Source: Escherichia coli
GTDB taxonomy: Bacteria > Pseudomonadota > Gammaproteobacteria > Enterobacterales > Enterobacteriaceae
Assembly (NCBI RefSeq): GCF_003790525.1
Contig: NZ_CP033635.1
Strand: one strand, 5' to 3'
DNA: 64,000 nt
Made by a program: the position numbers and the translations under genes
Shown here: piece by piece, positions 44,158 to 56,626 of the stretch
Layout of the letters: every line of letters starts with the position of its first letter
Position numbering within the stretch: the stretch's first letter is position 1
Notes under the pieces: model-generated
The model's database searches: none
What the model was told of the DNA's origin: nothing
The model's input: only the letters and a program-made list of their open reading frames with translations

Positions 44158-44322
44158 ATGGCAAAGCCGATCATCACGCTCAATGGCCTAAAAATCGTCA
44201 TTATGTTGGGAATGCTGGTCATTATTCTCTGCGGTATCCGTTTTGCCGCCGAGATCATCGTGCCGTTTATTCTCGCATTATTTATTGCTGTTATATATAA
44301 CTTATTTCGCTTAACTAATTGA
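44158..44322 (+). pseudogene. tqsA: tqsA 5' fragment (first ~45 codons, then foreign tail and stop) cut by the inserted element
   Basis: [45 protein letters not shown] then IYNLFRLTN*; the rest of the gene resumes at 55720. Confidence 0.85.
44286..44294 (+). repeat. left copy of 9-bp junction direct repeat TGCTGTTAT (candidate att core/overlap)
   Basis: identical 9-mer at 55720-55728; flanking bases differ on both sides. Confidence 0.6.
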
Positions 44323-44365
44323 TTTAATTAAATAATTTGCACTACAAAAAGTGCCAAAAATCGCA

Positions 44366-44391
44366 AATTAACTACACCATTAACTACACCG
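44366..44391 (+). repeat. left copy of 26-bp direct repeat AATTAACTACACCATTAACTACACCG (tandem 12-mer; candidate integrase arm-type sites)
   Basis: exact copy at 55567-55592; followed in both copies by a related ACAACGTG(G/A)AACAA motif. Confidence 0.6.
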
Positions 44392-45466
44392 TTCGGCGCA
44401 CTGTATGAAACAACGTGGAACAAATAGACACAAGCGGCAGGCTATACCGTTATCATTTTTCAGCTATCCGTCATGAAGCTGGTGGATGATCACGGATAAC
44501 CAGGCATCTACAGCGCCTTAAAAAGCTGAACCCGACAAACATTTCTGCTTATCGGGTCCGATCGCTCTTTCTACTCGTGGCAGATGAGTTTACTAGGAAG
44601 GGGGGAACATTGTATCAGGCTATCCCCTTTCTGTGCTGATTCGGCTGGTGAATGATCTACTTGGGGCACTACACTTTTCGGATAGTGCGGGTATCCGGTT
44701 TTCTGCCTCATCGAATTTTAAGCCTTCTGACGGCCTGTATATCATTTCCTGTGGAGTTGCCGCCCTGATAGCGAATACTGCGGCAGCATGTGATTTACCC
44801 CCCGTTCTGTTGATGTTTGATGTGGCTGGTTGATGTGCTGCCATGTTTTCCGCCAATGGTGGAAAAGCCCACCAGCGCAACGCAGGACGCATAAAACCAT
44901 TGCGATGACTCTGGACGCAAAACCACGTTTAACGATGTTTTGCACTGAACCAGAATACTGTTCGTTTTTGTCTCGATGTCCGTACGTATTACGTCCGCAC
45001 CTAATCCGGCATCATGCCCACCAGCGTAACGCATTTTTTTAATTTCGTGGCTGTGCGTCCACCAGCTACGCCGGAATGGGGTATTCCGTTTCAACGGAAC
45101 AGGTATGACGAACATAATCGCACCTTCTCCCGAAAACGGTGCGACCTGCATCATCGAAATGGTGATTCAGCTACTCGGCGATTTTCACCATTCAGAATCT
45201 GGCGGGTGAGTTATCCAGCTTCCACCAATGGGGGATTCTGGAACAATCAACGGGTTACGCCTTATCAGCAAAAAAGCACATCAACTGTAAAGGAAATCGT
45301 TATGGTTGCTGGTGGGCTGCGTCACCATCATGGTGATGATGCTGTCCAGTCAGCCGGAACGGTTGAACAGGGTGGCTATGGGTCACTCTGTTGTGCGTTA
45401 TTTGCGTGATCCTGGTACGGGGTGACTATCTTTCAGATAGTCGGTTGCCTGGTTACACGAAAAAAT

Positions 45467-45769
45467 TTACTTCCTGCGTTTATCCTGCTTTGTATGCCCG
45501 TGCTGAATGCCCCGCAGTGGATCTTCTTTTTTCAGGTCGATCCCCATGTCCGTTAGTGTTTTTGTGGCGGCGGTTCTTATGGCACAAATCAGGTCTCTTT
45601 CCGGTTCCCGGGTTATGGTTGCCTTCCGGATGCATGCCGTTCGTCGTTCCGTTACATACTGACGCGCTTCATCACTTGCCGCCTGTTTCAGTAACTCACC
45701 CCAGCGATTAGCCGCCCGTCGCCATAAACCTTTCGCTTCCAGTTCTTCCGCTTTGTCATCATGCACCAT
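45467..45769 (-). CDS. ANR-like small regulator, paralog 2 (start at MVHDD.. assumed)
   Basis: MVHDDKAEELEAKGLWRRAANRWGELL... parallels the protein at 49352-49624. Confidence 0.55.
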   Translation of the reverse strand: MVHDDKAEELEAKGLWRRAANRWGELLKQAASDEARQYVTERRTACIRKATITREPERDLICAIRTAATKTLTDMGIDLKKEDPLRGIQHGHTKQDKRRK

Positions 45770-45883
45770 AAGCATAATCCCATTGATACCTGTTAACTCT
45801 GAATGGTTGGTTTCTGTTCTTTTGATAATTTCCCGCATAGCTTATTGTATGACAGTACTGTCCCACAATAAGGAGTTGCACGC

Positions 45884-46174
45884 ATGAGAATGACTAGGCA
45901 CAAAAAACAGATTCTTGAACTCTACAAACCTGAGTATCGCGATTGGGTGCGGGTGGAGGCCGGAGATCCGCCTTTTGATGTTCGTGGTGTGACAGTGCTG
46001 CTCTATGGTTCCGAATATCGGCGATATCACATAGAGGCAACACGAAGGACGCTAAACGCTATGGTTCGTGATAAGTTGCTGGAGCGTGTGAAAGTCCGTG
46101 AGCCACGTTTTGATGTGCGTATTGGTGGCGATGGTGCGCATTGCACGGTAATCCGCTATGGCCTGGTAAGGTAA
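45884..46174 (+). CDS. hypothetical protein (96 aa), divergent from the ANR-like gene
   Basis: ORF with upstream AGGAG-like RBS; no recognisable family. Confidence 0.4.
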   Translation: MRMTRHKKQILELYKPEYRDWVRVEAGDPPFDVRGVTVLLYGSEYRRYHIEATRRTLNAMVRDKLLERVKVREPRFDVRIGGDGAHCTVIRYGLVR

Positions 46175-46276
46175 GCCATCGGGTAAATCAGATGATTAAA
46201 TCACCAGAATGTAAATTTACATTCTGCCAGCCACCAGCTACCCTCCTCAAAATTGAGGACCCTTTTTATCAACTGG

Positions 46277-46558
46277 TTACCGCCGCAACCGTTCCGGCTT
46301 CTTCCACTGATAAGTGTTTTTCGCGCTCTCCTGATACATCGCCACGCGTCGACGGTATGCCAGCAACTCTAGTACTCTGATTCGTATGTCGCGCATATCC
46401 ACGCCGTTAAGCTCAATACCATCACGGCGCATTACATCAGCAACAACACGCACATAATTTTCGGCGGTCACGCTGTCCGGCTGCGTGGCCTGTTCGTCAT
46501 GCTGCTGGCTGATTCCGGTAACGCGGCGGATTAATCCCAGTAGTTCGACTTCTGTCAT
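46277..46558 (-). CDS. hypothetical protein (93 aa) adjacent to cos copy A; start taken at internal Met
   Basis: MTEVELLGLIRRVTGI...; the longer ORF 46277..46756 would read through the cos site and is judged an artefact. Confidence 0.4.
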   Translation of the reverse strand: MTEVELLGLIRRVTGISQQHDEQATQPDSVTAENYVRVVADVMRRDGIELNGVDMRDIRIRVLELLAYRRRVAMYQESAKNTYQWKKPERLRR

Positions 46559-46570
46559 TGTGCCCCCATC

Positions 46571-46648
46571 GCTCTGATAGTCTGGTGTCGTCGGGTCCTT
46601 TCCGGCATGTGGACCCGTTACGGGGCGTCGACCTCGCGCGTTTTCACT
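46571..46648 (+). other. lambda-like cos site copy A (cosQ-cosN-left-arm homology); cosN-like 12-mer GGGCGTCGACCT at 46602-46613
   Basis: GGGTCCTTTCCGG...GTTACG GGGCGTCGACCT CGCGCGTTTTCACTATTTATGAAAATTTTTCGG closely matches the recalled lambda cos junction (lambda cosN GGGCGGCGACCT). Confidence 0.75.
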
Positions 46649-46664
46649 ATTTATGAAAATTTTT

Positions 46665-46775
46665 CGGGATCCATGTCCGGTTTCTCTGCAAGTTAACCAT
46701 ATGAAAAATATAAAAACATGCTTTCCATGAACCGGACATGCGCAAAAAACAGACACTAAAACCGGACATCGAACC
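46665..46775. repeat. three CCGGACAT motifs in alternating orientation next to cos copy A (candidate cosB-like terminase-docking sites)
   Basis: ATGTCCGG near 46671, CCGGACATG near 46729, CCGGACATC near 46763. Confidence 0.45.
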
Positions 46776-46837
46776 AGTTAACCGAAAGTGTGCACAAATC
46801 ACATTCATTGCTGCGAGTGATTAACAAGTTATCGGCT

Positions 46838-47272
46838 TTACTGTTCTGTATCGGCTGATTGCTCCATGCTGGCACGGCGAACGCTTACGGCATGACGCCA
46901 CCCAGCCAGAAAGCCAGCCATTTTATTTCGTGCCTTGCTCACATCTTCCGGTGAATAGCCGTAAATATGCAAACCTTCATCAAATCGATGTTCTGTTTCT
47001 TCACTGGAGTACTCGTCACGCTCAGATGAAAGCAGCCTCGCAAACATAATTTTTTCCAGCGCACTGGTTTCTACGTGATATCCGATGGTCTGAAGATGGC
47101 TTTTACCTGAATACCAAAGCAATGTATGCCCGATGTGATAACCGCCAGACTTTCCGCGATCCGCATTAAGATACGGCATCCCCTGTTTGGTCCATGCGCG
47201 AATAGTGGTTCTGTTAACCTTGAAATGTTCAGCTATTTCCTGCTGACTTACAAAACAAGCTTTATCAATCAT
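46838..47272 (-). CDS. Nu1-like small terminase-type DNA-binding protein (wHTH N-terminus, divergent C-terminus); possibly a packaging-redirection factor
   Basis: VSQQEIAEHFKVNRTTIRAWTKQGMPYL aligns with lambda Nu1 VNKKQLADIFGASIRTIQNWQEQGMPVL; 144 aa versus 181 aa for Nu1. Confidence 0.65.
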   Translation of the reverse strand: MIDKACFVSQQEIAEHFKVNRTTIRAWTKQGMPYLNADRGKSGGYHIGHTLLWYSGKSHLQTIGYHVETSALEKIMFARLLSSERDEYSSEETEHRFDEGLHIYGYSPEDVSKARNKMAGFLAGWRHAVSVRRASMEQSADTEQ

Positions 47273-47334
47273 AATGTTACCTTAACTGCATGGTTAAATA
47301 TCAATCAAGTGGTGGTGGTGTCACCTTCACGGAA

Positions 47335-47405
47335 AAACGTCATAAATAGCGAAAACGTGCGAGGTCGACGCCCCGTAACGGGTCCACATGCCGGAAAGGA
47401 CCCGC
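47335..47405 (-). other. lambda-like cos site copy B, inverted relative to copy A; cosN-like 12-mer (reverse complement) at 47362-47373
   Basis: reverse complement reads GGGTCCTTTCCGGCATGTGGACCCGTTACG GGGCGTCGACCT CGCACGTTTTCGCTATTTATGA; lies about 70 bp upstream of the terS-like start in the lambda cosN-to-Nu1 orientation. Confidence 0.7.
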
Positions 47406-47428
47406 AAAAAAAGCCGGATTTCTCCGGC
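47406..47428 (-). terminator. intrinsic terminator after the capsid/decoration genes
   Basis: minus strand GCCGGAGAAATCCGGC followed by U7. Confidence 0.65.
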
Positions 47429-47502
47429 CTTGTCTCAGATGGTTTTCAGTATGCGATAGATGTCGCCGTCATCGCCCTGGTTTGTGCCATCGTTCCCCCT
47501 GC

Positions 47503-47838
47503 TTATCGGGCCAGCGGCTGAACGGATACGCCGGAACCCGCAAAGGCGGCGCATTTTTTCGCATCGGTGTCGACGCTCTCAGGCCAGTTAACGGCGGCAA
47601 TATTGAATATCCCCGTCTTGTAACACTGTGCTGATTTCTGCTTTGACGTGTCCACAGGGTACGAGGTCAGATAAACAGCCTTGCCAGATTCCTTACCATC
47701 CCACGCCTTAAACTCGCCATTGTCTGCCAGCATCAGCGGGGTAAATTCCTGAATAACGCCAGCATCAGCGGCAAAATGTACCAGCGTCGTGGATACCTGT
47801 TGGCTGCCTGAAAATAACTCAATGTATGGAGCGTCCAT
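47503..47838 (-). CDS. lambda gpD-like head decoration protein
   Basis: TPLMLADNGEFKAWDG and AFAGSGVSV match lambda gpD TPLMLDTSSRKLVAWDG and AFAGTAISIV; 111 aa. Confidence 0.8.
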   Translation of the reverse strand: MDAPYIELFSGSQQVSTTLVHFAADAGVIQEFTPLMLADNGEFKAWDGKESGKAVYLTSYPVDTSKQKSAQCYKTGIFNIAAVNWPESVDTDAKKCAAFAGSGVSVQPLAR

Positions 47839-47849
47839 AGAATCCCCCG

Positions 47850-48905
47850 TTAAGCAATTTTGACGGTAACAAATTTGCGAATATCTGCCGGTACAGGCTG
47901 CGGTGCGCTGTGCGTCTGCACGTACTCAATCGCCGGATCGCCGTCCTCAATCCAGTTTTTCGGGTAGTACATGTTTTGCGTTGCGCCCGTTCTTACCGCT
48001 TCCTGATCCATAATCGCACCATATGCCACCAGCCCTTTATTGTTGGTGTTACCCAGGACCAGCAAATCAGGCTCAAGGAAATATTTTTCGGTCCCGTCGC
48101 TGTCAGTGTATTTGCCGGAATAGACGATAAGGGCCAGATCACCAAGATAGCCTTTAAAGCTCACCACTTCGCCCAGGTTTTTACAGGCCAGCTCGGCGGC
48201 GGATTCTGATCCACGGGAAAGATCGTACAGTTCACGGAATTTTTTAAAGCTGCGTAATGTGCGCCATACCTCACCGCCCATAATCATGACGTTGGCGGGG
48301 CAACCTGCCTGATCAGCATAAAGCTCGATGTCATAGATTGGGTCGTGCATGTCTTTATCCTGCTGGGACCATTTTTTACCACTGGCCTGCTGTATGATGC
48401 AGTTTTCCGGTATTTTCCAGTCGATTTCATAGCGTTCTATGCCTTCGCCCTCAATGATGTTTTTTCCGGTCGTTACCGCATTCACCGCCAGCCATTCCAC
48501 GCGCGCCTTAATGGCGTTTATCTGGCGGCGCATGTTGCCAGTAATCAGGCGCATACGGCGGTAAGTTGGATCGTTAAGCTGTGCCGGATCTTCTCCATCC
48601 ATGCGCATGATGGTCTTTGTTGGATCGATTTCGTGCTTTGGCTTCATGTAGCCTGGTTTAATCGTGCTGGTTTCGTACCCTTTATCGCGCTGGACCTGAC
48701 TACCCACCATAGGAGAACAGAACGCTGACATCGTAACCTCTTCAATGTCCAGGGTGTCCAGCATGATGTTTTGGGTGTTGAAGGTCGCCACGTTCGGGAA
48801 AAACAGCGTGGTAAACAGCGGACTAAATTTATATTCCGAAATATCCCCGCGATTCAGGTACGCGAAAAGCTGGTTAGTTGTAAGTGCCTTTGCTTTGCCT
48901 GTCAT
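47850..48905 (-). CDS. lambda gpE-like major capsid protein
   Basis: 351 aa; KPGYMKPKHEIDPTKT, DPTYRRMRLITGNMRR and YPKNWIEDGDPA...SAP...FVTVKIA align with lambda gpE along the whole length. Confidence 0.85.
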   Translation of the reverse strand: MTGKAKALTTNQLFAYLNRGDISEYKFSPLFTTLFFPNVATFNTQNIMLDTLDIEEVTMSAFCSPMVGSQVQRDKGYETSTIKPGYMKPKHEIDPTKTIMRMDGEDPAQLNDPTYRRMRLITGNMRRQINAIKARVEWLAVNAVTTGKNIIEGEGIERYEIDWKIPENCIIQQASGKKWSQQDKDMHDPIYDIELYADQAGCPANVMIMGGEVWRTLRSFKKFRELYDLSRGSESAAELACKNLGEVVSFKGYLGDLALIVYSGKYTDSDGTEKYFLEPDLLVLGNTNNKGLVAYGAIMDQEAVRTGATQNMYYPKNWIEDGDPAIEYVQTHSAPQPVPADIRKFVTVKIA

Positions 48906-49111
48906 TATTCACCTCCGTGAACCTGATTGATACCCAGCGCCGCACGCAAATAGGTGCGCACCTGCCAGCCTGTTGACGGCTCAACCATCGCCAGCGGATC
49001 AAGTCCTGCCGCAATGCCTGCTTTTACATTCTGCTGGTGGCGTTCCTTGAGCGCCTCCACGATGTCGGGGCTTATGTAGACCGTCACCCCGCCTTTTTTC
49101 TCTTCTGCCAT
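48905..49111 (-). CDS. hypothetical 68-aa protein translationally coupled (TAATG) to the capsid gene
   Basis: stop overlaps the gpE-like ATG; first gene of the capsid operon. Confidence 0.5.
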   Translation of the reverse strand: MAEEKKGGVTVYISPDIVEALKERHQQNVKAGIAAGLDPLAMVEPSTGWQVRTYLRAALGINQVHGGE

Positions 49112-49145
49112 AGTCAGAAATTCCTCTTTGACTTAAAAAATCATA

Positions 49146-49163
49146 ACTGGATGTTCATCCAGT
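49146..49163. promoter_or_regulatory. perfect palindrome ACTGGATG-TT-CATCCAGT upstream of the capsid operon (candidate operator/activator site)
   Basis: 8-bp arms with 2-bp spacer, about 35 bp upstream of the first operon ATG (49111). Confidence 0.4.
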
Positions 49164-49322
49164 CCTGATTATAATCATGATTGCATTTTGCGCAACAATA
49201 TTGAGTTACGTTGCAAATTATGAAATGATTATCCCGATCATGTGTGTCAGTTCACCATAAAAAACCTCGTATACAAAAGCCCCATAAGCCCCCTGTGACC
49301 TTATCGGGCTTTTTTTAGGCGT

Positions 49323-49344
49323 AAAAAAGCCGGATTGCTCCGGC
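49323..49344 (-). terminator. intrinsic terminator after the ANR-like gene (same stem family as 47406-47428)
   Basis: minus strand GCCGGAGCAATCCGGC followed by U6. Confidence 0.6.
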
Positions 49345-49351
49345 TGTGTGC

Positions 49352-49624
49352 TCACTTCTGCGGGTAGTTGCGCCATATTGCTTTGCCAATACCAGCTATC
49401 CCCATTTGTTTTTCAGTGCGATTAACTGACCTTTTCAGAGCGCCTAAATCATCCGGCGGCTCCGGTGGCCTCTGTGCCTTACGGATACATTCCGCGCGAC
49501 GCATTGCCACCTGTTCGCGCTCCTTGTCTGTCTCCACCAGCCTCATAACTTCACCCCATCGCGCCGCCGCCCTCCGGTAAAAGCCTTTTGCCTCGAGTTC
49601 CTCCGCTATGCGGTCATGTACCAT
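49352..49624 (-). CDS. ANR-like small regulator, paralog 1 (start at MVHDR.. assumed)
   Basis: MVHDRIAEELEAKGFYRRAAARWGEVM...; longer ORF start would overlap ssb. Confidence 0.55.
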   Translation of the reverse strand: MVHDRIAEELEAKGFYRRAAARWGEVMRLVETDKEREQVAMRRAECIRKAQRPPEPPDDLGALKRSVNRTEKQMGIAGIGKAIWRNYPQK

Positions 49625-49634
49625 CGTCACCCCC

Positions 49635-50045
49635 TCAGAACGGAATATCATCACCGTAAGGGTCATCGCCTCCCGCTGGTGGCTGATTACCCTGTGTGCC
49701 TGTGGTTTTGCGTCTGTTCCCGCCAGGACGTGCCGCACGGGCACTGATTACGCTGTCTGCAATAACCTGCCAGCCCTGCCGCGTTTCCCCGTTCTGTCCG
49801 GTCCACTGGCTGACCTGCATCGTGCCGGATACGCTGGCAACGTCGCCTTTTTGATGTTTAGCCAGAAAGTCGGCCTGTTTGCCAAATGCGATGACCGATA
49901 ACCATAACGTCGCCTGTCCGTCCTGTGCCTGGCCGCATGGTAAAGATACCGCCATACGCGCCAGCGTCATCGGTGTACCCTTACTGGTCTGTTTTACCTG
50001 CGGGTCGTCCACCAGCCGCCCGTAAGCTGCTATCTGTGCTGTCAT
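49635..50045 (-). CDS. single-stranded DNA-binding protein (SSB-like OB fold with acidic DDIPF tail)
   Basis: 136 aa; C-terminal ...DPYGDDIPF typical of SSB; Gly/Pro-rich linker. Confidence 0.75.
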   Translation of the reverse strand: MTAQIAAYGRLVDDPQVKQTSKGTPMTLARMAVSLPCGQAQDGQATLWLSVIAFGKQADFLAKHQKGDVASVSGTMQVSQWTGQNGETRQGWQVIADSVISARAARPGGNRRKTTGTQGNQPPAGGDDPYGDDIPF

Positions 50046-50284
50046 GCTGTCTGCTCTCCGGTTTTAACGTTGATGGTTGTTACCTGTTCTGCTTCGGCAA
50101 TATCCCGCTCTGTCAGCGTGGCAAAGTTTGCCGCCGTCGTTGTCATGAATGCGCTTATCAGTTCGGGATGTGCTTTCGCGTATCCTTCCCCTGTGTTGCG
50201 GTCGATGATTTTTATCGCCACCCTCAGCCAGTGCTCTGTAAGGTCAATGGCGCGGTGATCTGTCTTTTTGTGGCTTACCTTCAT
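50042..50284 (-). CDS. hypothetical protein (80 aa)
   Basis: ORF overlapping the ssb start (coupled); no recognisable family. Confidence 0.45.
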   Translation of the reverse strand: MKVSHKKTDHRAIDLTEHWLRVAIKIIDRNTGEGYAKAHPELISAFMTTTAANFATLTERDIAEAEQVTTINVKTGEQTA

Positions 50285-50287
50285 GAT

Positions 50288-50611
50288 TTACTCCAGAGTA
50301 CCGCTATTGCTGCTGTCGTTAACCGGATACCAGGCAAATACCATCGATTCACCACAGTGAACAAACTTCTTATCCGGCAGATAAAGGCACTCGCACATTC
50401 CCTCATCAGGACTATGCGGACTCATGCCCAGCTCACTGGTCAGCACGGGTAAGATTTCGCGGCAGGTGTTCCCCGCACCGAAATAATCAACCTCACAAAG
50501 CGCCCATGCAGCAATCGGGCTGTACCATTCCGTGCCGTCGTCGTCTTTGAACTTAGCCCACCAGCCAGGAAGGGCAGTTGATATGCTCAGTGTTTCAATT
50601 TCAGTGTTCAT
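50288..50611 (-). CDS. hypothetical protein (about 107 aa; start uncertain)
   Basis: ORF 50288..50656 with internal Met; Cys-rich, no recognisable family. Confidence 0.45.
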   Translation of the reverse strand: MNTEIETLSISTALPGWWAKFKDDDGTEWYSPIAAWALCEVDYFGAGNTCREILPVLTSELGMSPHSPDEGMCECLYLPDKKFVHCGESMVFAWYPVNDSSNSGTLE

Positions 50612-50659
50612 AAATTTACCTTCGGTATTTTGTCCTGCTGTTCGATTTTTATTCATTGC

Positions 50660-50870
50660 TCACCATCTCTCACTTTTACTACTCACTTTTTAAAGCGTCT
50701 CGCTTCGTCTCACTTGAGATTTTTGTGTTTTGTATGTGCATGTTTCATAAGTGTTTTTTCACTGCTCACTTTTGAGCATGTATACAGGTGAGAAAGTGAG
50801 TAATTGTGTTAATATTTTGTAAAAACCTCACCATTACTCACTTTTACTACTCACTTTTTACAGTGGTCCT
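50660..50870. repeat. iteron array (CTCACTT heptamers, two 24-bp direct repeats) - candidate replication origin of the element
   Basis: at least 6 direct and 2 inverted CTCACTT copies between 50669 and 50856; CTCACTTTTACTACTCACTTTTTA at 50669 and 50839; directly 3' of the primase-helicase gene. Confidence 0.6.
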
Positions 50871-52264
50871 ACATCATCACCATCAATGTAAATCACGGCG
50901 TCTTTTTCCAGTTTGGCTAACCATCGCCGCATATTTTTCACGTCATACCCAAGCCGTTTCATGTCATCACGTAACAGCGGGATCGTGCACTTGTCGCCGT
51001 TCTGTGTGCGTGAACGGATGCACCCCCATAGCGCGGTATGGTTTTCCGTCTTGTTGCCTGCCTCCTCGATGCGCTCCAGTTCAGCAGGGGCGCGGGGAAC
51101 GTCAATCACCACCATGGACACAATTTCTTCGCCATCTGTATCGGTGAACACCTCCACGCTTTTAAGGTCGTATGCACTCTCTTTTGGCTCCTCTGCGTCC
51201 TTCATCTTCGTACACGCCGCAACCAGTGCTGTAACGTCTGAATTTTCCCTGCTGATTCGGTACTCTGCATCAAGCGCGGCACGGAATGCACTGGAACCAC
51301 GCGCCCCCTTTGTTTCATCCTTGCCGGAATGGTGAACCACCAGCACCGTGGCCCCTGTGGCCTGCTTTATCGCGTCACACCCCTGGATAAATGCGCCCAT
51401 ATCACGGGAATCATTTTCATCATTCCCACCAAAGCAACGGGCCAGCGTGTCGATCACAATCAGCCGCACATTTTCGCCCGTTCTGCTCTTAACAAGTCCG
51501 GCAGTCCTGATAACCTGCTCCACATAGTCAGGCGATGCAGGGAAAACAGGCGCGTTAATGATGCACAAATCTGTAACCACCTTGTCGTGGGTTATCTCCC
51601 ACGCCTTAACGCGGCGTTTTACGCCCATGCTGCCTTCACCAGCGATATAGATAACCGCACCCTTACTTACCCTGCGGCCTCCCCATGCCATACCTGTGGC
51701 AACATGGCACGACCAGGAAATGGCGAGGAACGATTTATAAGAACCGCTGGCCCCGTAGGTGCTGCATAATGACTCAGCCGGAATAAGCCCCTTAATGACG
51801 TAGCTTTGCTGCGCATCGAATCCCTCAGAACCCCATGAGATGGGAAGTGTGATTTTTCGCTTTCCGCCATTCATGACCAGGCTTTCCCCTCTCTCCCATG
51901 TTTCCCGTAGTCGTGGTAGCTGGTCGCTCCAGTCCTCCAGCAGTTCGAAATTTTCAGAAAGTAGCCGCGCCTCCTGGACTCCGGCGATCGCCAGTTTTGT
52001 GGCAATGGTCAGCATCTGCATATCGTCCAGGTTTCCGGCGCGTATGACCTTTACCCTGTATCGTCCTTCATCAACAATCTGTAAGTTGTCCAGTTCGCTT
52101 AACTGATAACGGCCCAGATAAACCGGAGGGATGGGATCGCCTGCTTTTTTGGCCTGTGCAATCATGTAATGTTCTGCAAAGGAGTGAGCATTATCACCCG
52201 CAAAAATAACCGCCTCAGTGTGTTTATCTTTCGGTAACAGTTTTACGTTCGGTGCAAGTTTCAT
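50858..52264 (-). CDS. replication initiator: primase-associated N-domain + RecA-like/AAA helicase (pri-rep type)
   Basis: 468 aa; Walker A GASGSYKS, Walker B LIVIDTL, VLVVHHSGKD; C-terminal wH-like tail. Confidence 0.8.
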   Translation of the reverse strand: MKLAPNVKLLPKDKHTEAVIFAGDNAHSFAEHYMIAQAKKAGDPIPPVYLGRYQLSELDNLQIVDEGRYRVKVIRAGNLDDMQMLTIATKLAIAGVQEARLLSENFELLEDWSDQLPRLRETWERGESLVMNGGKRKITLPISWGSEGFDAQQSYVIKGLIPAESLCSTYGASGSYKSFLAISWSCHVATGMAWGGRRVSKGAVIYIAGEGSMGVKRRVKAWEITHDKVVTDLCIINAPVFPASPDYVEQVIRTAGLVKSRTGENVRLIVIDTLARCFGGNDENDSRDMGAFIQGCDAIKQATGATVLVVHHSGKDETKGARGSSAFRAALDAEYRISRENSDVTALVAACTKMKDAEEPKESAYDLKSVEVFTDTDGEEIVSMVVIDVPRAPAELERIEEAGNKTENHTALWGCIRSRTQNGDKCTIPLLRDDMKRLGYDVKNMRRWLAKLEKDAVIYIDGDDVGPL

Positions 52265-52548
52265 TTCTTACCCCCTGCGACCAGCATTTCACGGATTTTG
52301 CGGATATAACTTGCAGCACGTTTCTGATTAACGGCTTTACGATGGCCCACCAGCGTGAAATCACGCCGGAACTGATAAACAGGCATAACGCAGTCATATT
52401 CGTAGCCTTCACGGCGGTAAGTGATGCGACGTTCCTCCACGCCCTTAATCATTACCGTGCCGCCGTAGTTATCACGGAAAATATCGCCGGGACGGATTTC
52501 AGGACGAGCGGGGCCGCTGGCATTAACGCCAGAATTTTTATTTTTCAT
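52261..52548 (-). CDS. hypothetical protein (95 aa) translationally coupled to the replication gene
   Basis: stop overlaps the downstream start; basic protein. Confidence 0.45.
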   Translation of the reverse strand: MKNKNSGVNASGPARPEIRPGDIFRDNYGGTVMIKGVEERRITYRREGYEYDCVMPVYQFRRDFTLVGHRKAVNQKRAASYIRKIREMLVAGGKK

Positions 52549-52553
52549 GTTTT

Positions 52554-52781
52554 TTATTCTCCGGTGTGCTGTTCTTTATATCTGTCGTGAATTGCCATCA
52601 CTGTATTTAATTCATTAATAACAGCCGTTAATAGCGTACGCACGGCAGAAAACATCATTGAATCAGATTCATCGCCACTTTCCTGCACATCAATTAAATT
52701 AAGTAGTAATGCGTCCATTTCCTTTGCGCGGATTAATGCCTTTTCACAATGAAAAATAACACCAAAGGGTATTTTATTCAT
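52554..52781 (-). CDS. hypothetical protein (about 75 aa)
   Basis: ORF with internal Met start; first gene after the divergent operator region. Confidence 0.4.
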   Translation of the reverse strand: MNKIPFGVIFHCEKALIRAKEMDALLLNLIDVQESGDESDSMMFSAVRTLLTAVINELNTVMAIHDRYKEQHTGE

Positions 52782-53056
52782 GACTCCCCTCCTGACGGAT
52801 ACGGGCGGCGAATACAGCGACACAACCGGACGGGCAACGGTTACGCGCTTCGCGTTCCGTCCAGGCGGTCACGTGGATAATTTGAGATTCTCCGGCACTC
52901 AGTGCCAGAAAACGCCACACAAAGGCGGTTTGTGTGTGCGCTAGTCGTGGGGTATGCTGTGTTCCAGCCATAATCGTTACTCCTGTTAACGGTTTGGTTA
53001 GACGCCCTGCATGTGTTACAGCACTGCGGGGCGTTGTCTTTTTAACGGCTTTCGTG

Positions 53057-53104
53057 ATAGGGTGTACACCTATCAAGCAAAAACATAACGCTATAGGTGT
53101 ACAC
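53057..53104. promoter_or_regulatory. two TAGG(G)TGTACAC palindromic operator-like sites immediately upstream of the RHH gene
   Basis: ATAGGGTGTACACCTAT at 53057-53073 and ATAGGTGTACAC at 53093-53104, ending at the ATG. Confidence 0.6.
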
Positions 53105-53299
53105 ATGTCAACAGTTATTAAGCGAGATAAAAAACCAAAGGGAACAGGAAAAGCCCCCCCATTCCATATGCGAATAGCTCCAGAACTGAAAGAGCAGTTT
53201 GATAATGAGGCCAGCAATGATGGGGTAAGCCTAGCCAACTGGCTTAAAGAGTTGGGGCGCGCCGAACTAAAGCGACGCGGCATTGAACCTAAAGGCTGA
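53105..53299 (+). CDS. ribbon-helix-helix (CopG/Arc-like) DNA-binding protein, 64 aa
   Basis: beta-strand/helix pattern PFHMRIAPELKEQF...SLANWLKELGRAEL typical of RHH regulators/antitoxins. Confidence 0.6.
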   Translation: MSTVIKRDKKPKGTGKAPPFHMRIAPELKEQFDNEASNDGVSLANWLKELGRAELKRRGIEPKG

Positions 53300-53302
53300 T
53301 GT

Positions 53303-53428
53303 ATGACTGAAAAGCAGACCGATAACAAACTTTCTCTACCAGAGAATAAACCAGCAGGCTTCTTACCAAGAAAAATCCTTGATGAGATCAAACGCCGCCA
53401 GCGCCGCAAGGCCAAAGAGCAGGAATAG
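53303..53428 (+). CDS. small basic ORF (41 aa) immediately downstream of the RHH gene
   Basis: ATG 4 nt after the RHH stop; product MTEKQTDNKLSLPENKPAGFLPRKILDEIKRRQRRKAKEQE. Confidence 0.3.
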   Translation: MTEKQTDNKLSLPENKPAGFLPRKILDEIKRRQRRKAKEQE

Positions 53429-53752
53429 CCCACCAGCAAGCCAGCACACTGATCACATTGGCCACCGTGACAGGTGGCCTTTTCTTTGCCCGTTATCCGG
53501 CAATTGTGGCGCTTCGCCACACGGTTGATATAATTCCCCTGCTCAGATTCATTTTTTGCGCGGCAGGTAAATTGTTCAGAAAGGCGGCTCCTTATCGGGG
53601 CCGCTTTTTTTATGTCTGAAAAACCGCGATTTTGTTGTTTTTCAGTTTCACCAGGCCGAACGAAGCCCCGCCCATGTTCGGGCGTATATCCAGTCTTCAT
53701 GGTTAAATCTCTGTATTAGTGGATGGGTGGCGGCTGTGTGCCGCCAGTCTTT

Positions 53753-53941
53753 TTAGTGAACTGCCTCGCAGCTTTCCTTCCATGCCAGAACTTCGGATAA
53801 AGACCAGCCAACGGAACGACCGCCCAGCTTACGCCGTGATGGGAATTGTCCGGCCTTTTCCAGGCGGTAGCGGCATGAGCGGCTAAGGCCTGTTAGCTTT
53901 TCGCATTCTTTTTCACGTATAAAGCGATCAGTGCTTAACAC
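53753..53941 (-). CDS. alpA: AlpA/Vis-family phage regulatory protein (excisionase-like)
   Basis: 62 aa; ...IREKECEKLTGLSRSCRYRLEKAGQFPSRRKLGGRSVGW... typical AlpA fold signature. Confidence 0.8.
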   Translation of the reverse strand: MLSTDRFIREKECEKLTGLSRSCRYRLEKAGQFPSRRKLGGRSVGWSLSEVLAWKESCEAVH

Positions 53942-54315
53942 TATTGCCCCCTTTCGTTTCTTAAAGAGTTATTTCGTGTTCTATTGCGTTGGGATGTGTC
54001 TGATTGTGTCAGGGTGATTCAGAGTTGGCAAATGTTGGTGGCGGGTATTTTACAGAAACGGGGTGATTTTAATAAAAATCATTTTAATTCAGTATTATGC
54101 AAAGGCATAAAATCTCGTTTTATGCCTTTTTTCTCACTATTTAAAGCGTTATTCGCTAATGTATAAAAAACCAGTTGAGCATTAAAAATCAGCAACTTAT
54201 AAATCTGTATACTTTTTGACCTCTTGTTCGTGGTTGTTTCACGTTGTTGTGTATTGTTGCACGTTGTATCTGTGCACTTATCCAGTATGCGCATACTGAA
54301 AAAACACGAAAAAAA

Positions 54316-55566
54316 TTATTTTCTTCTGGCTACTGGTAGCGTGGTTACGTTTTCATGTGCTCCCGCCAGTATCTCCAACCGCTCCACCCACATATCCAGC
54401 GCATTGCGTTTCGCATCCAGATAACGGGAATGATTATAAACTCGCTGCATTCCTGGCATCTGGTGGCCTGTAAGCTGCTCCACGACGTGAGGATCCACGC
54501 CTAAATCGTTCAGCATCGTTGTAAAGGTGCGCCGGATGTCATGCAGTGACCATTGAGGGTGTTTTAGCCTCCTGTGCGCTAATCTGCCGTACTGCGATAC
54601 GCTGGCCTCCTGTTTCACTTCCCCCAGTAATAAGCCCGTGTGCCTGTTCTGCTCCACCAGCCGCGTGACGAACGGCAGGATCGCTTCCGGTATGGGCCGG
54701 AATATTGCGACCTTCGTTTTGCTGTGCTCCTTCGGAACGGTCCAGAGCATTTCCGTGAAATCCCACTCCCCGATCTCCGATAACCTCAGTTCTACCGTCC
54801 TGGCTCCGAAGACAATCAGGAGGCGGATTAGTGCGACGTAGTAAGGGGAAAATATTTTTTTGTCCAGTGCCTGCAATAATTCGCCCAGTTCTTTGGTGCT
54901 TAAGACACGTTCGCTTATATCCGGTTTTTTCCCAACGTCCGCCACGTTCAGATCGTCCAGAACGTTGCTGATTGCATAGCGCCGCCTCCGGCAAAACTTA
55001 AGCGCCTGTTTGCACGCCTGTAGCACGAATCCGGCAGTAACAGGCGTTCGCTTTGCCACCCGATCAAAACAGGCCAGCCAGTGCCGTAGCTCGCATTTAT
55101 CCAGCGGCATAGCACCAATGTGCTGTATTACGTGATTATTAAGTCGCCTTTTCAGGGCGATATAATCCACGCGGTTTTCCTTTACGTAAGACTCAAGCCA
55201 GTAGGTGAGCGCATCTCCAACCGTTACAGGCTTTAACGCTTCCTGCATGGTGTAATTCATCTCATGACGTGGATTTTTCCCCTCAGCCAGCCATGCGCGA
55301 CACTGGGCGGCTTTTTCCCTGGCTGATTTCAGGCTCAGATCAGGATAATTTCCCAGCTTAATACGTTCCGGTCGTGTCTCTCTTCCCGTTCCGGCCCTGT
55401 AAGTGAAATACCAGGTTAAAAGGCCGCTGGTTGAATGCCTGACGCTCAGATTTCCACCGTCATTAAGAAAGGCTGTTTTTTGGGCGGGTGTGCCGTTGAT
55501 TTTCCTTAGCTGTGTATCGCTCAGCTTGTTAAGTGCTCTGGTCATAATTTTGAATCCGGTCATCAC
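54316..55566 (-). CDS. int: tyrosine site-specific integrase (P4-type)
   Basis: 416 aa; C-terminal catalytic region with ...HDIRRTF... and ...LTGHQMPGMQRVYNH... (R..H..R..Y). Confidence 0.88.
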   Translation of the reverse strand: MMTGFKIMTRALNKLSDTQLRKINGTPAQKTAFLNDGGNLSVRHSTSGLLTWYFTYRAGTGRETRPERIKLGNYPDLSLKSAREKAAQCRAWLAEGKNPRHEMNYTMQEALKPVTVGDALTYWLESYVKENRVDYIALKRRLNNHVIQHIGAMPLDKCELRHWLACFDRVAKRTPVTAGFVLQACKQALKFCRRRRYAISNVLDDLNVADVGKKPDISERVLSTKELGELLQALDKKIFSPYYVALIRLLIVFGARTVELRLSEIGEWDFTEMLWTVPKEHSKTKVAIFRPIPEAILPFVTRLVEQNRHTGLLLGEVKQEASVSQYGRLAHRRLKHPQWSLHDIRRTFTTMLNDLGVDPHVVEQLTGHQMPGMQRVYNHSRYLDAKRNALDMWVERLEILAGAHENVTTLPVARRK

Positions 55567-55592
55567 AATTAACTACACCATTAACTACACCG
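55567..55592 (+). repeat. right copy of the 26-bp direct repeat AATTAACTACACCATTAACTACACCG
   Basis: exact copy of 44366-44391, directly upstream of the int start codon. Confidence 0.6.
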
Positions 55593-55719
55593 ATCGTTGC
55601 ACAAAGGGCTACAACGTGAAACAAGCTGGAACAAGAAAAATCACAAATTTGTTTATAATCAAAAACATAATGCACAACCTGAAACATTATGAAACGGCAA
55701 AAAACACTAATTGATAAAG

Positions 55720-56626
55720 TGCTGTTATTCTTAACCCGCTGGTGCAACACATGGTCCGCTGGCGAGTGCCGCGTGTACTGGCGGTGTCGATTTTGATGAC
55801 CATCATCGTGATGGCGATGGTGTTGCTGTTAGCTTATCTGGGTTCCGCGCTCAACGAGTTGACGCGGACGTTACCGCAATATCGCAACTCTATTATGACG
55901 CCGCTGCAAGCGATTGAACCGTTGTTGCAACGCGTAGGGATTGATGTCTCAGTTGACCAACTGGCGCATTACATTGATCCGAACGCGGCAATGACGTTGC
56001 TCACCAACTTATTGACGCAGTTATCTAATGCCATGTCATCAATCTTTTTATTGCTGCTGACGGTGCTGTTTATGTTGCTCGAAGTGCCACAATTGCCCGG
56101 AAAATTTCAGCAAATGATGGTGCGTCCGGTTGAAGGGATGGCGGCGATTCAGCGTGCGATTGACAGTGTGTCTCATTATCTGGTGCTGAAAACAGCCATC
56201 AGCATCATCACCGGCCTGGTCGCCTGGGCGATGCTCGCCGCACTCGATGTTCGCTTCGCTTTTGTCTGGGGATTGCTGGCCTTTGCGCTTAATTACATCC
56301 CTAATATTGGTTCAGTTCTCGCGGCAATCCCCCCTATCGCTCAGGTACTGGTGTTTAATGGCTTCTACGAAGCGTTGCTGGTGCTGGCGGGATATCTGCT
56401 AATTAATCTGGTCTTCGGCAATATTCTGGAGCCGCGCATCATGGGACGTGGGCTGGGGCTTTCCACATTGGTGGTATTTTTGTCGTTGATTTTTTGGGGA
56501 TGGTTGTTAGGACCGGTGGGTATGCTGCTTTCCGTGCCGTTAACAATTATTGTCAAAATTGCGCTTGAACAAACAACGGGAGGTCAAAGCATCGCCGTTC
56601 TGTTAAGCGATCTCAACAAAGAGTGA
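55720..56626 (+). pseudogene. tqsA: tqsA 3' fragment (about 300 codons) downstream of the inserted element
   Basis: in-frame continuation ...[26 protein letters not shown]... after a stop codon at 55715. Confidence 0.85.

Follow-up and report, generated by a model that had tools for sequence, protein, structure and literature searches.

Attachment-site architecture and doubled 12-mer arm repeats of a phage satellite inserted in Escherichia coli tqsA

The tqsA element and its described relatives

The closest described layout is that of the HE-PICIs, whose attP carries a co-oriented doubled motif, tgTGTATTGCa x2, with one copy 81 ± 2 bp before the attP centre and the other 132 ± 2 bp after it when read in the int orientation (PMC10111431, NAR Genom Bioinform 2023). 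The same study proposes the arm domains of an Int tetramer as the binder of this motif, leaves AlpA or an unidentified protein open, and did not find the doubled motif in other PICIs. Its supplement lists identity blocks of reference PICIs at tqsA, phoQ and clpS-cspD. The tqsA.EcCI042 block, ATAACAGCA, is the reverse complement of the junction 9-mer discussed below, TGCTGTTAT, and the phoQ.EcCICFT073 block, GGACATATTT, is the site of our element L002. EcCI042/EcCICFT073-type Gram-negative PICIs were described by Fillol-Salom et al. (2018, PMC6092414), and cf-PICIs such as EcCIEDL933 in 10.1101/2022.09.08.507074. In the literature we found no description of the arm-site architecture of EcCI042/EcCICFT073-type PICIs; a text search for the motif string returned nothing relevant, and 'tqsA' with 'PICI' returned no main-text match.

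Classical integrase systems offer a second point of comparison. The lambda att site comprises P1, P2 and P'1-3 together with IHF and Xis, and P2 and 186 have paired direct-repeat arm sites on each arm. In the IntS/TorI system of KplE1 (CPS-53), int reportedly adjoins its own att arm, and the arm sites mediate int autoregulation.

Within the window, by which we mean the whole 64-kb stretch of E. coli DNA analyzed here, tqsA is split by an 11.4-kb element (44295-55719) that is an EcCI042/EcCICFT073-type PICI phage satellite. Its genes, all on the minus strand, encode a P4-type tyrosine integrase, AlpA, Icd-like proteins, a RepA-family helicase, an SSB, PerC regulators, a lambda-E-like major capsid protein, a head-decoration protein and a TerS-like protein. 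Gram-negative PICI satellites are organized in this way, and the int-alpA-replication backbone is the same as that of EcCI042 and EcCICFT073. Among the element's genes we found no tail or lysis genes, and neither the ORF list nor a PHROG search revealed a transposase. E. coli 042, the host of EcCI042, carries a related element at tqsA with both flanks matched (70% of the query at 89% identity). cf-PICIs whose Int is 92-93% identical occupy exactly the same tqsA nucleotide; they carry a full HK97 packaging module, whereas the window element has only its lambda-E-like major capsid, head-decoration and TerS-like genes. The int gene is present in roughly 1245 E. coli genomes. Among species-representative genomes, a search with the single Int gave no match, and a search with an Int alignment gave only two remote alphaproteobacterial matches at 22-24% identity. 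At attR (55709-55745), element-borne in-frame TGA TAA stops stand just 5' of the tqsA remainder, so no tqsA fusion protein is made and tqsA, an AI-2 exporter gene, is inactivated rather than repaired.

We consider it very likely that 44286-44434 and 55568-55728 are the attL and attR of this PICI, and that it integrates lambda-style by means of its own P4-type tyrosine integrase, with arm sites read by Int (Table 1). The layout resembles that of HE-PICIs in spacing (78 and 132 bp) and orientation. It differs in motif, tgTGTATTGCa there and ATTAACTACACC in the window clade, and in target, since HE-PICIs integrate in helper-prophage late genes and the window clade in chromosomal loci, here tqsA. 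To the HE-PICI picture the clade adds covariation of the motif with the Int N-domain. With att sites of the lambda, P2 and 186 type, the element appears to share a 7-bp overlap, inverted core half-sites, putative arm sites unrelated in sequence to the core, a candidate site for a bending protein that separates core from arm, and a putative directionality factor of the small winged-helix kind. Unlike them, it has a simple 2 + 2 arrangement with a 12-bp period and a very loose core consensus. As in KplE1, int is the terminal gene, its 5' region lies within an att arm, and putative arm sites sit just upstream; KplE1 int is autoregulated, whereas the int promoter of the window element was not located in the arm.

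Already known, then, are the tqsA block (2023 supplement) and the 81/132-bp doubled-motif layout, the latter from HE-PICIs with a different motif. New are the 12-mer motif of this clade, its covariation with Int, and the existence of near-identical integrases with different 7-bp overlaps at unrelated loci. The established view of tyrosine integrases is not overturned, as the architecture is that of a classical heterobivalent integrase. What results is a base-level att map (overlap, half-sites, arm sites and accessory candidates) for a widespread E. coli phage-satellite group that includes the model PICIs EcCICFT073 and EcCI042 as well as cf-PICIs at the same sites, useful for annotating islands and designing int-attP vectors. 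It also shows that the HE-PICI layout extends more generally to AlpA-type PICI integrases.

Table 1. Observed and putative features of the tqsA attachment sites and adjoining genes (positions in the window)
Feature	Position	Strand	Basis or remark
tqsA 5' fragment, codons 1 to about 46, cut by the insertion	44158..44294	+	ORF list; PGAP pseudogene in near-identical strain CM2; empty-site match
B core-type half-site (putative), ATAAATAATG, read outward from overlap	44276..44285	-	fit to consensus
attL identity block TGCTGTTAT; putative 7-bp overlap at 44286-44292	44286..44294	+	7-bp register set by L003 identity
C' core-type half-site (putative) of the element, ATATATAACT	44293..44302	+	half-site alignment; same sequence follows TGCTGTT in attP of L013 and L043
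IHF-consensus match AATCAATTAGTTA = WATCARNNNNTTR, candidate bending site	44312..44324	-	+23 from overlap centre
Int-distal arm, two tandem ATTAACTACACC, putative Int arm-type sites	44367..44390	+	starts 78 bp from overlap centre
Three 10-bp-phased RAACAA repeats, GAAACAACGTGGAACAAATAGACACAAG	44407..44434	+	position conserved across lineages; tentative
alpA, excisionase / transcriptional regulator family	53753..53941	-	PHROG 2790, E=1e-17; AlpA family annotation in relatives
int, P4-type tyrosine integrase, 409 aa	54316..55545	-	PHROG 1
Int-proximal arm, two tandem ATTAACTACACC	55568..55591	+	23-46 nt upstream of int ATG; end 132 bp from overlap centre
10-bp-phased RAACAA repeats, ACAACGTGAAACAAGCTGGAACAAGA	55611..55636	+	adjoin the int-proximal 12-mers; positions conserved
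Two further phased GAAAC(A/G) repeats near the core	55681..55696	+	-42 and -32 from overlap centre; positions conserved in relatives
C core-type half-site (putative), CTTTATCAAT, read outward	55710..55719	-	end of conserved arm ...AAAAAACACTAATTGATAAAG; all relatives alike to here, then differ by site
attR identity block TGCTGTTAT; putative overlap at 55720-55726	55720..55728	+	junction sequence
B' core-type half-site (putative), ATTCTTAACC	55727..55736	+	half-site alignment
tqsA 3' fragment	55729..56626	+	ORF list; strain CM2 annotation; empty-site match

Doubled 12-mers in both arms and the Int N-domain

Each arm contains an exact copy of the 26-mer AATTAACTACACCATTAACTACACCG (44366-44391 and 55567-55592; chance expectation 0), 72 and 128 nt from the respective 9-mers. 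As the sequence-only reading had recognized, this direct repeat is itself a tandem duplication, consisting of two successive copies of the 12-mer ATTAACTACACC. The 8-mer core of the unit, ACTACACC, has no other occurrence in the element, whether on the plus or the minus strand. The shared stretch ACAACGTG(G/A)AACAA, also pointed out at the outset, is present after both copies, beginning 18 nt past each 26-mer; the whole forms a 69-nt direct repeat that is 77% identical between arms.

Position relative to the core is a fixed property of these repeats. Measured from the overlap centre, the int-proximal doubled 12-mer spans 155 to 132 bp in eight of ten lineages, and the int-distal one begins at 77-78 bp. 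The remaining two lineages, which form the most distant clade, have 157 and 134 bp on the int-proximal side and 75 bp on the int-distal side. Both arms in that clade (L009/L010 and L015, with Int 67% identical) contain AACTGACCACAC x2 as their motif, and the other arm sequence has diverged. Likewise, tandem 12-mers are kept at the same distances in L008, L009 and L015 despite the diverged arm around them. Hence the expectation that related elements would keep such repeats held in every relative examined: each carries the doubled 12-mer on either side, and its spacing from the core is fixed. The 12-mers are constant across elements with different replicases and capsid modules. Two other roles were ruled out. 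Replication iterons were rejected because the same 12-mers accompany three replicases (a RepA helicase, a primase family and DUF927), and a phage-borne operator was rejected because the arm repeat had no match in 50,697 phage records.

The integrase contains a Pfam Arm-DNA-bind_3 domain at residues 8-95 (E=1e-17), followed by Phage_int_M and Phage_integrase, and its N-terminal region varies together with the 12-mers. Each of the four 12-mers in the cf-PICI lineage L011/L013/L043 has the sequence A(G/A)TGACTACACC. Compared with the window, the int-distal arm of this lineage is altered solely at the second and fourth positions of every 12-mer, with the flanks unchanged. Its Int differs from the window Int at 15 of the first 42 residues, as against 15 of the remaining 367 (Fisher p=6e-9), and the changes include a predicted beta-strand, RHSTSGLL to KYLTSGKL. 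AlpA, by comparison, is identical in L002, which has ATTAAC-type 12-mers, and in L011/L013, which have the AGTGAC type. The pairing recurs in an IMG/VR survey of 80 loci. ATTRAC-type motifs accompany the RHSTSGLL-type Int at all 19 of its loci with an arm in view, and the variant motif, with second 12-mer AGTGACTACACC, accompanies the KYLTSGKL-type Int at all 11 (one first unit being AATAAC); there was no exception among the 19 + 11.

This covariation supports reading the four 12-mers as Int arm-type sites, engaged by the N-domains of an Int tetramer, in line with the sequence-only proposal of integrase binding sites in both arms. Under such a model the 2 + 2 sites would be read by the four N-terminal Arm-DNA-bind_3 domains of the tetramer. 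Covariation rests on about three motif/N-domain types, so that independent evolutionary events are few. In the int-proximal arm, moreover, the N-domain and the 12-mers belong to one contiguous recombination tract, and linkage alone could explain that half of the pattern. More can be learned from the int-distal pair, in which positions 2 and 4 of each unit are the only ones to have changed.

A regulator rather than Int could in principle be the reader, the 12-mers then being operators for AlpA or another protein that controls int expression or excision. One pair does lie 23-46 nt upstream of the int start, and the authors of PMC10111431 left AlpA or an unidentified protein open for the analogous HE-PICI motif. 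We nevertheless regard this as improbable: AlpA is the same in L002 and L011/L013 while the 12-mers differ and the Int N-domain is 15/42 residues apart, Int itself possesses a Pfam arm-binding domain, and 2 + 2 sites at fixed core distances suit a tetramer with four arm-binding domains.

It is less probable still, and by our estimate very unlikely, that the 26-bp and 69-bp repeats are non-functional relics of an ancestral terminal duplication and that only the core matters. A decaying duplication could give co-oriented copies that extend to a 69-nt repeat at 77% identity. It sits poorly with the persistence of tandem 12-mers at the same distances in L008, L009 and L015 amid diverged arms, and with int-distal substitutions in the L013 lineage that fall only at positions 2 and 4 per 12-mer between unchanged flanks.

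Junctions, excised forms and the crossover core

The 9-mer TGCTGTTAT abuts both ends of the insertion and is shared exactly by the two tqsA junctions, as first noticed. It occurs four times in the window against 0.65 expected, and the other two copies (9597 and 62462) are unrelated to the insertion. Joining both tqsA flanks through a single TGCTGTTAT reconstructs the empty site. This reconstruction equals intact tqsA at 100% identity. Of 5426 complete E. coli genomes, 5167 match it over at least 80% of its length, which confirms the anticipated empty allele with one 9-mer. An uninterrupted copy of this tqsA stretch is missing from about 255 of the 5426, and the cause was checked in few of those.

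A single copy in the empty site fits both site-specific recombination and target-site duplication, and it is the element-borne junction that tells them apart. For the window element the predicted attP reads ...TTGATAAAG-TGCTGTT-ATATATAAC.... Scanning IMG/VR with exact patterns, either for this attP or for a gapped pattern of the family, produced no match; attP came instead from a protein-seeded locus (L043) and from tandem dimers. L043, a metagenome contig of 11,098 bp, has a direct repeat of 119 bp at its termini, which identifies it as a circular assembly. Its junction, ...AAATGATAAAA-TGCTGTT-ATATATAAC..., matches the prediction and has the doubled motif on either side. In two assemblies, L012 (phoQ-roxA) and L013 (tqsA), attP is the internal junction of head-to-tail dimers. 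The element-borne attP can be summarized as ...GATAAA(A/G)-TGCTGTT-ATATATAAC..., and one block is common to attL, attR, attB and attP (attP seen in L013 and L043). The excised circular junction that the sequence-only reading called for is thus present in public data, as the L043 circle and the L012/L013 tandem dimers.

These attP junctions already refute the reading of the 9-bp repeat as a target-site duplication from transposition, to which we assign a negligible probability: transposition would also leave a direct repeat flanking the element and an empty site with one copy, but the element has a tyrosine integrase and AlpA in place of a transposase, the block lies within the element at the excised and tandem junctions, the length of the identity block varies from site to site (7 to 14 bp) instead of being fixed, and PICIs and cf-PICIs with different cargo sit at the same tqsA nucleotide wherever the junction was read. 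Site-specific integration, as originally put forward, stands on these grounds.

Head-to-tail copies of one PICI at one chromosomal site were seen in independent assemblies, namely L012 (NCCP 13894), L013 (EC444) and L092. They point to integration of dimers or to integration into the attL or attR of a resident copy. The circular form of L043 in a viral-contig collection is only suggestive of helper-phage induction and packaging of the PICI.

Comparison across integration sites refines the core. Int relatives that are 67-94% identical lie at phoQ-roxA (the EcCICFT073 site), allC-allE, within yifB, clpS-cspD, thiM-rcnR and beside abgR. All of these share the int-proximal arm as far as ...ACACTAAnTGAnAAA and one further base (GATAAAR), beyond which come 7 site-specific nt. 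The corresponding overlaps would be TGCTGTT at tqsA, TATGTCC at phoQ-roxA, GGGATAT at allC-allE, ATCCGCT at yifB, AACTATC at clpS-cspD, TACGGGT at thiM-rcnR and TCACGAT at abgR. Identity blocks between attL and attR measure 7 to 14 bp depending on the site, always with the site-specific 7-mer inside. At allC-allE (L003) the identity is exactly 7 bp after the conserved GATAAAR, and this fixes the 7-bp register. The six integration sites compared indicate that crossover probably takes place in TGCTGTT, the leading 7 nt of the 9-mer, and the trailing AT would be fortuitous identity between C' and B'. The idea of a short crossover core has therefore survived, with its length reduced from 9 bp to a functional overlap of probably 7 bp.

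With this register fixed, we aligned 24 half-sites (C, C', B and B' at six sites). Their consensus is WTTTAT(C/A)A, with T2 in 23/24, T6 in 24/24 and A8 in 21/24, which suggests that the overlap is bounded by four inverted, loosely conserved core-type half-sites. In the mechanism we propose, the Int core-binding and catalytic domains would bind the four WTTTAT(C/A)A half-sites and strand exchange would proceed across TGCTGTT.

At phoQ-roxA, L006 has TATGTCC at attL and TATGCCC at attR, and the same was noted at the attR of L031 and L063; the single mismatch at overlap position 5 in L006 seems to be tolerated or segregated. L042 (IMGVR_UViG_2671180417_000010) combines TGCTGTT + AT with a cf-PICI-type Int, and its host flank (ATTGATTCACGGCCTGG...) is not E. 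coli tqsA; that flank is a second locus or another species with the same overlap. The L065 overlap is TCACGAT at attL, as in L068, and TCAC-AGC-GAT at attR; this 3-bp insertion in the overlap is either an aberrant junction or an assembly error.

Target choice, accessory elements and cargo

Near-identical integrases occur at unrelated loci. L007 (yifB, ATCCGCT) and L068 (beside abgR/mcaS, TCACGAT) have Ints that differ at 6 of 409 residues, only two of them outside the N-domain. L003 (allC-allE, GGGATAT) and L005 (phoQ-roxA, TATGTCC) have Ints that differ at 8 of 409. Arms and C half-site are common within each pair; the C' half-site is nearly the same in L007 and L068 and different between L003 and L005. 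In L063 the KYLTSGKL/AGTGAC module occurs together with the phoQ-roxA overlap, from which it follows that the arm module and the core module reassort.

On these comparisons we advance a further idea, tentatively and with some doubt: the chromosomal target might be set mainly by attP DNA, the 7-bp overlap serving as the address, and not by the Int protein, alongside a separable N-domain/12-mer code. In such a code, residues 27-28, 36-38 and 42 would pair with 12-mer positions 2 and 4 and keep each Int matched to its own arms. If this is true, the integrase family is a naturally re-targetable scaffold. The natural covariation also offers a small, testable specificity code for the Arm-DNA-bind_3 domain, and the exchange of overlaps between near-identical integrases suggests a route by which satellites come to use new chromosomal sites.

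Beyond overlap, half-sites and 12-mers, the arms contain candidate accessory sites. The IHF-consensus match at +23 is found in only five of ten lineages; among these the consensus bases are constant and the N positions vary. DNA bending, probably at this IHF-like site, would fold the arms back onto the core. The flavour of the RAACAA arrays tracks AlpA type, with TG(G/A)AACAA accompanying one and CGAACAA the other, whichever 12-mer type is present. This hints that the arrays are candidate AlpA/RDF sites. AlpA would then act as the directionality factor, possibly via the 10-bp-phased RAACAA arrays beside the 12-mers.

A further array, of four to five 10-bp-phased RAACAA repeats, lies on the minus strand at 54223-54267, past the int stop by 40-95 nt; a promoter-like site for alpA (54031-54003) is about 190 bp downstream of it. 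The array is present in the window-type clade and absent from the L008/L009 clades, and may be regulatory or AlpA-binding.

Int occupancy of the int-proximal 12-mers, so close to the int start, could autoregulate int. A promoter scan of the int-proximal arm detected no sigma-70 promoter for int, and for that reason autoregulation through arm sites is only an analogy with KplE1.

Away from the attachment sites, three features of the element stand out. The left end, about 1 kb at 44440-45460, is ORF-poor and contains a block, CCGTTATCATTTTTCAGCTATCCGTCATGAAGCTGGTGGATGATCACGGATAACC, kept across lineages with different packaging modules; an Rfam search of the element gave no match, and the region may be a packaging (cos/pac) region or an RNA of unidentified class. 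A 78-nt inverted repeat (46592-46669 and 47327-47404), 91% complementary, surrounds a 657-bp segment with the TerS-like gene (46838-47272), and this segment could be an invertible or inserted cassette. Finally, comparison of 46838-48905 with L011/L013 finds one integrase and site accompanied by a minimal lambda-like capsid set in one case and by a full HK97-type cf-PICI packaging module in the other, so cargo modules swap on a constant int/att backbone.
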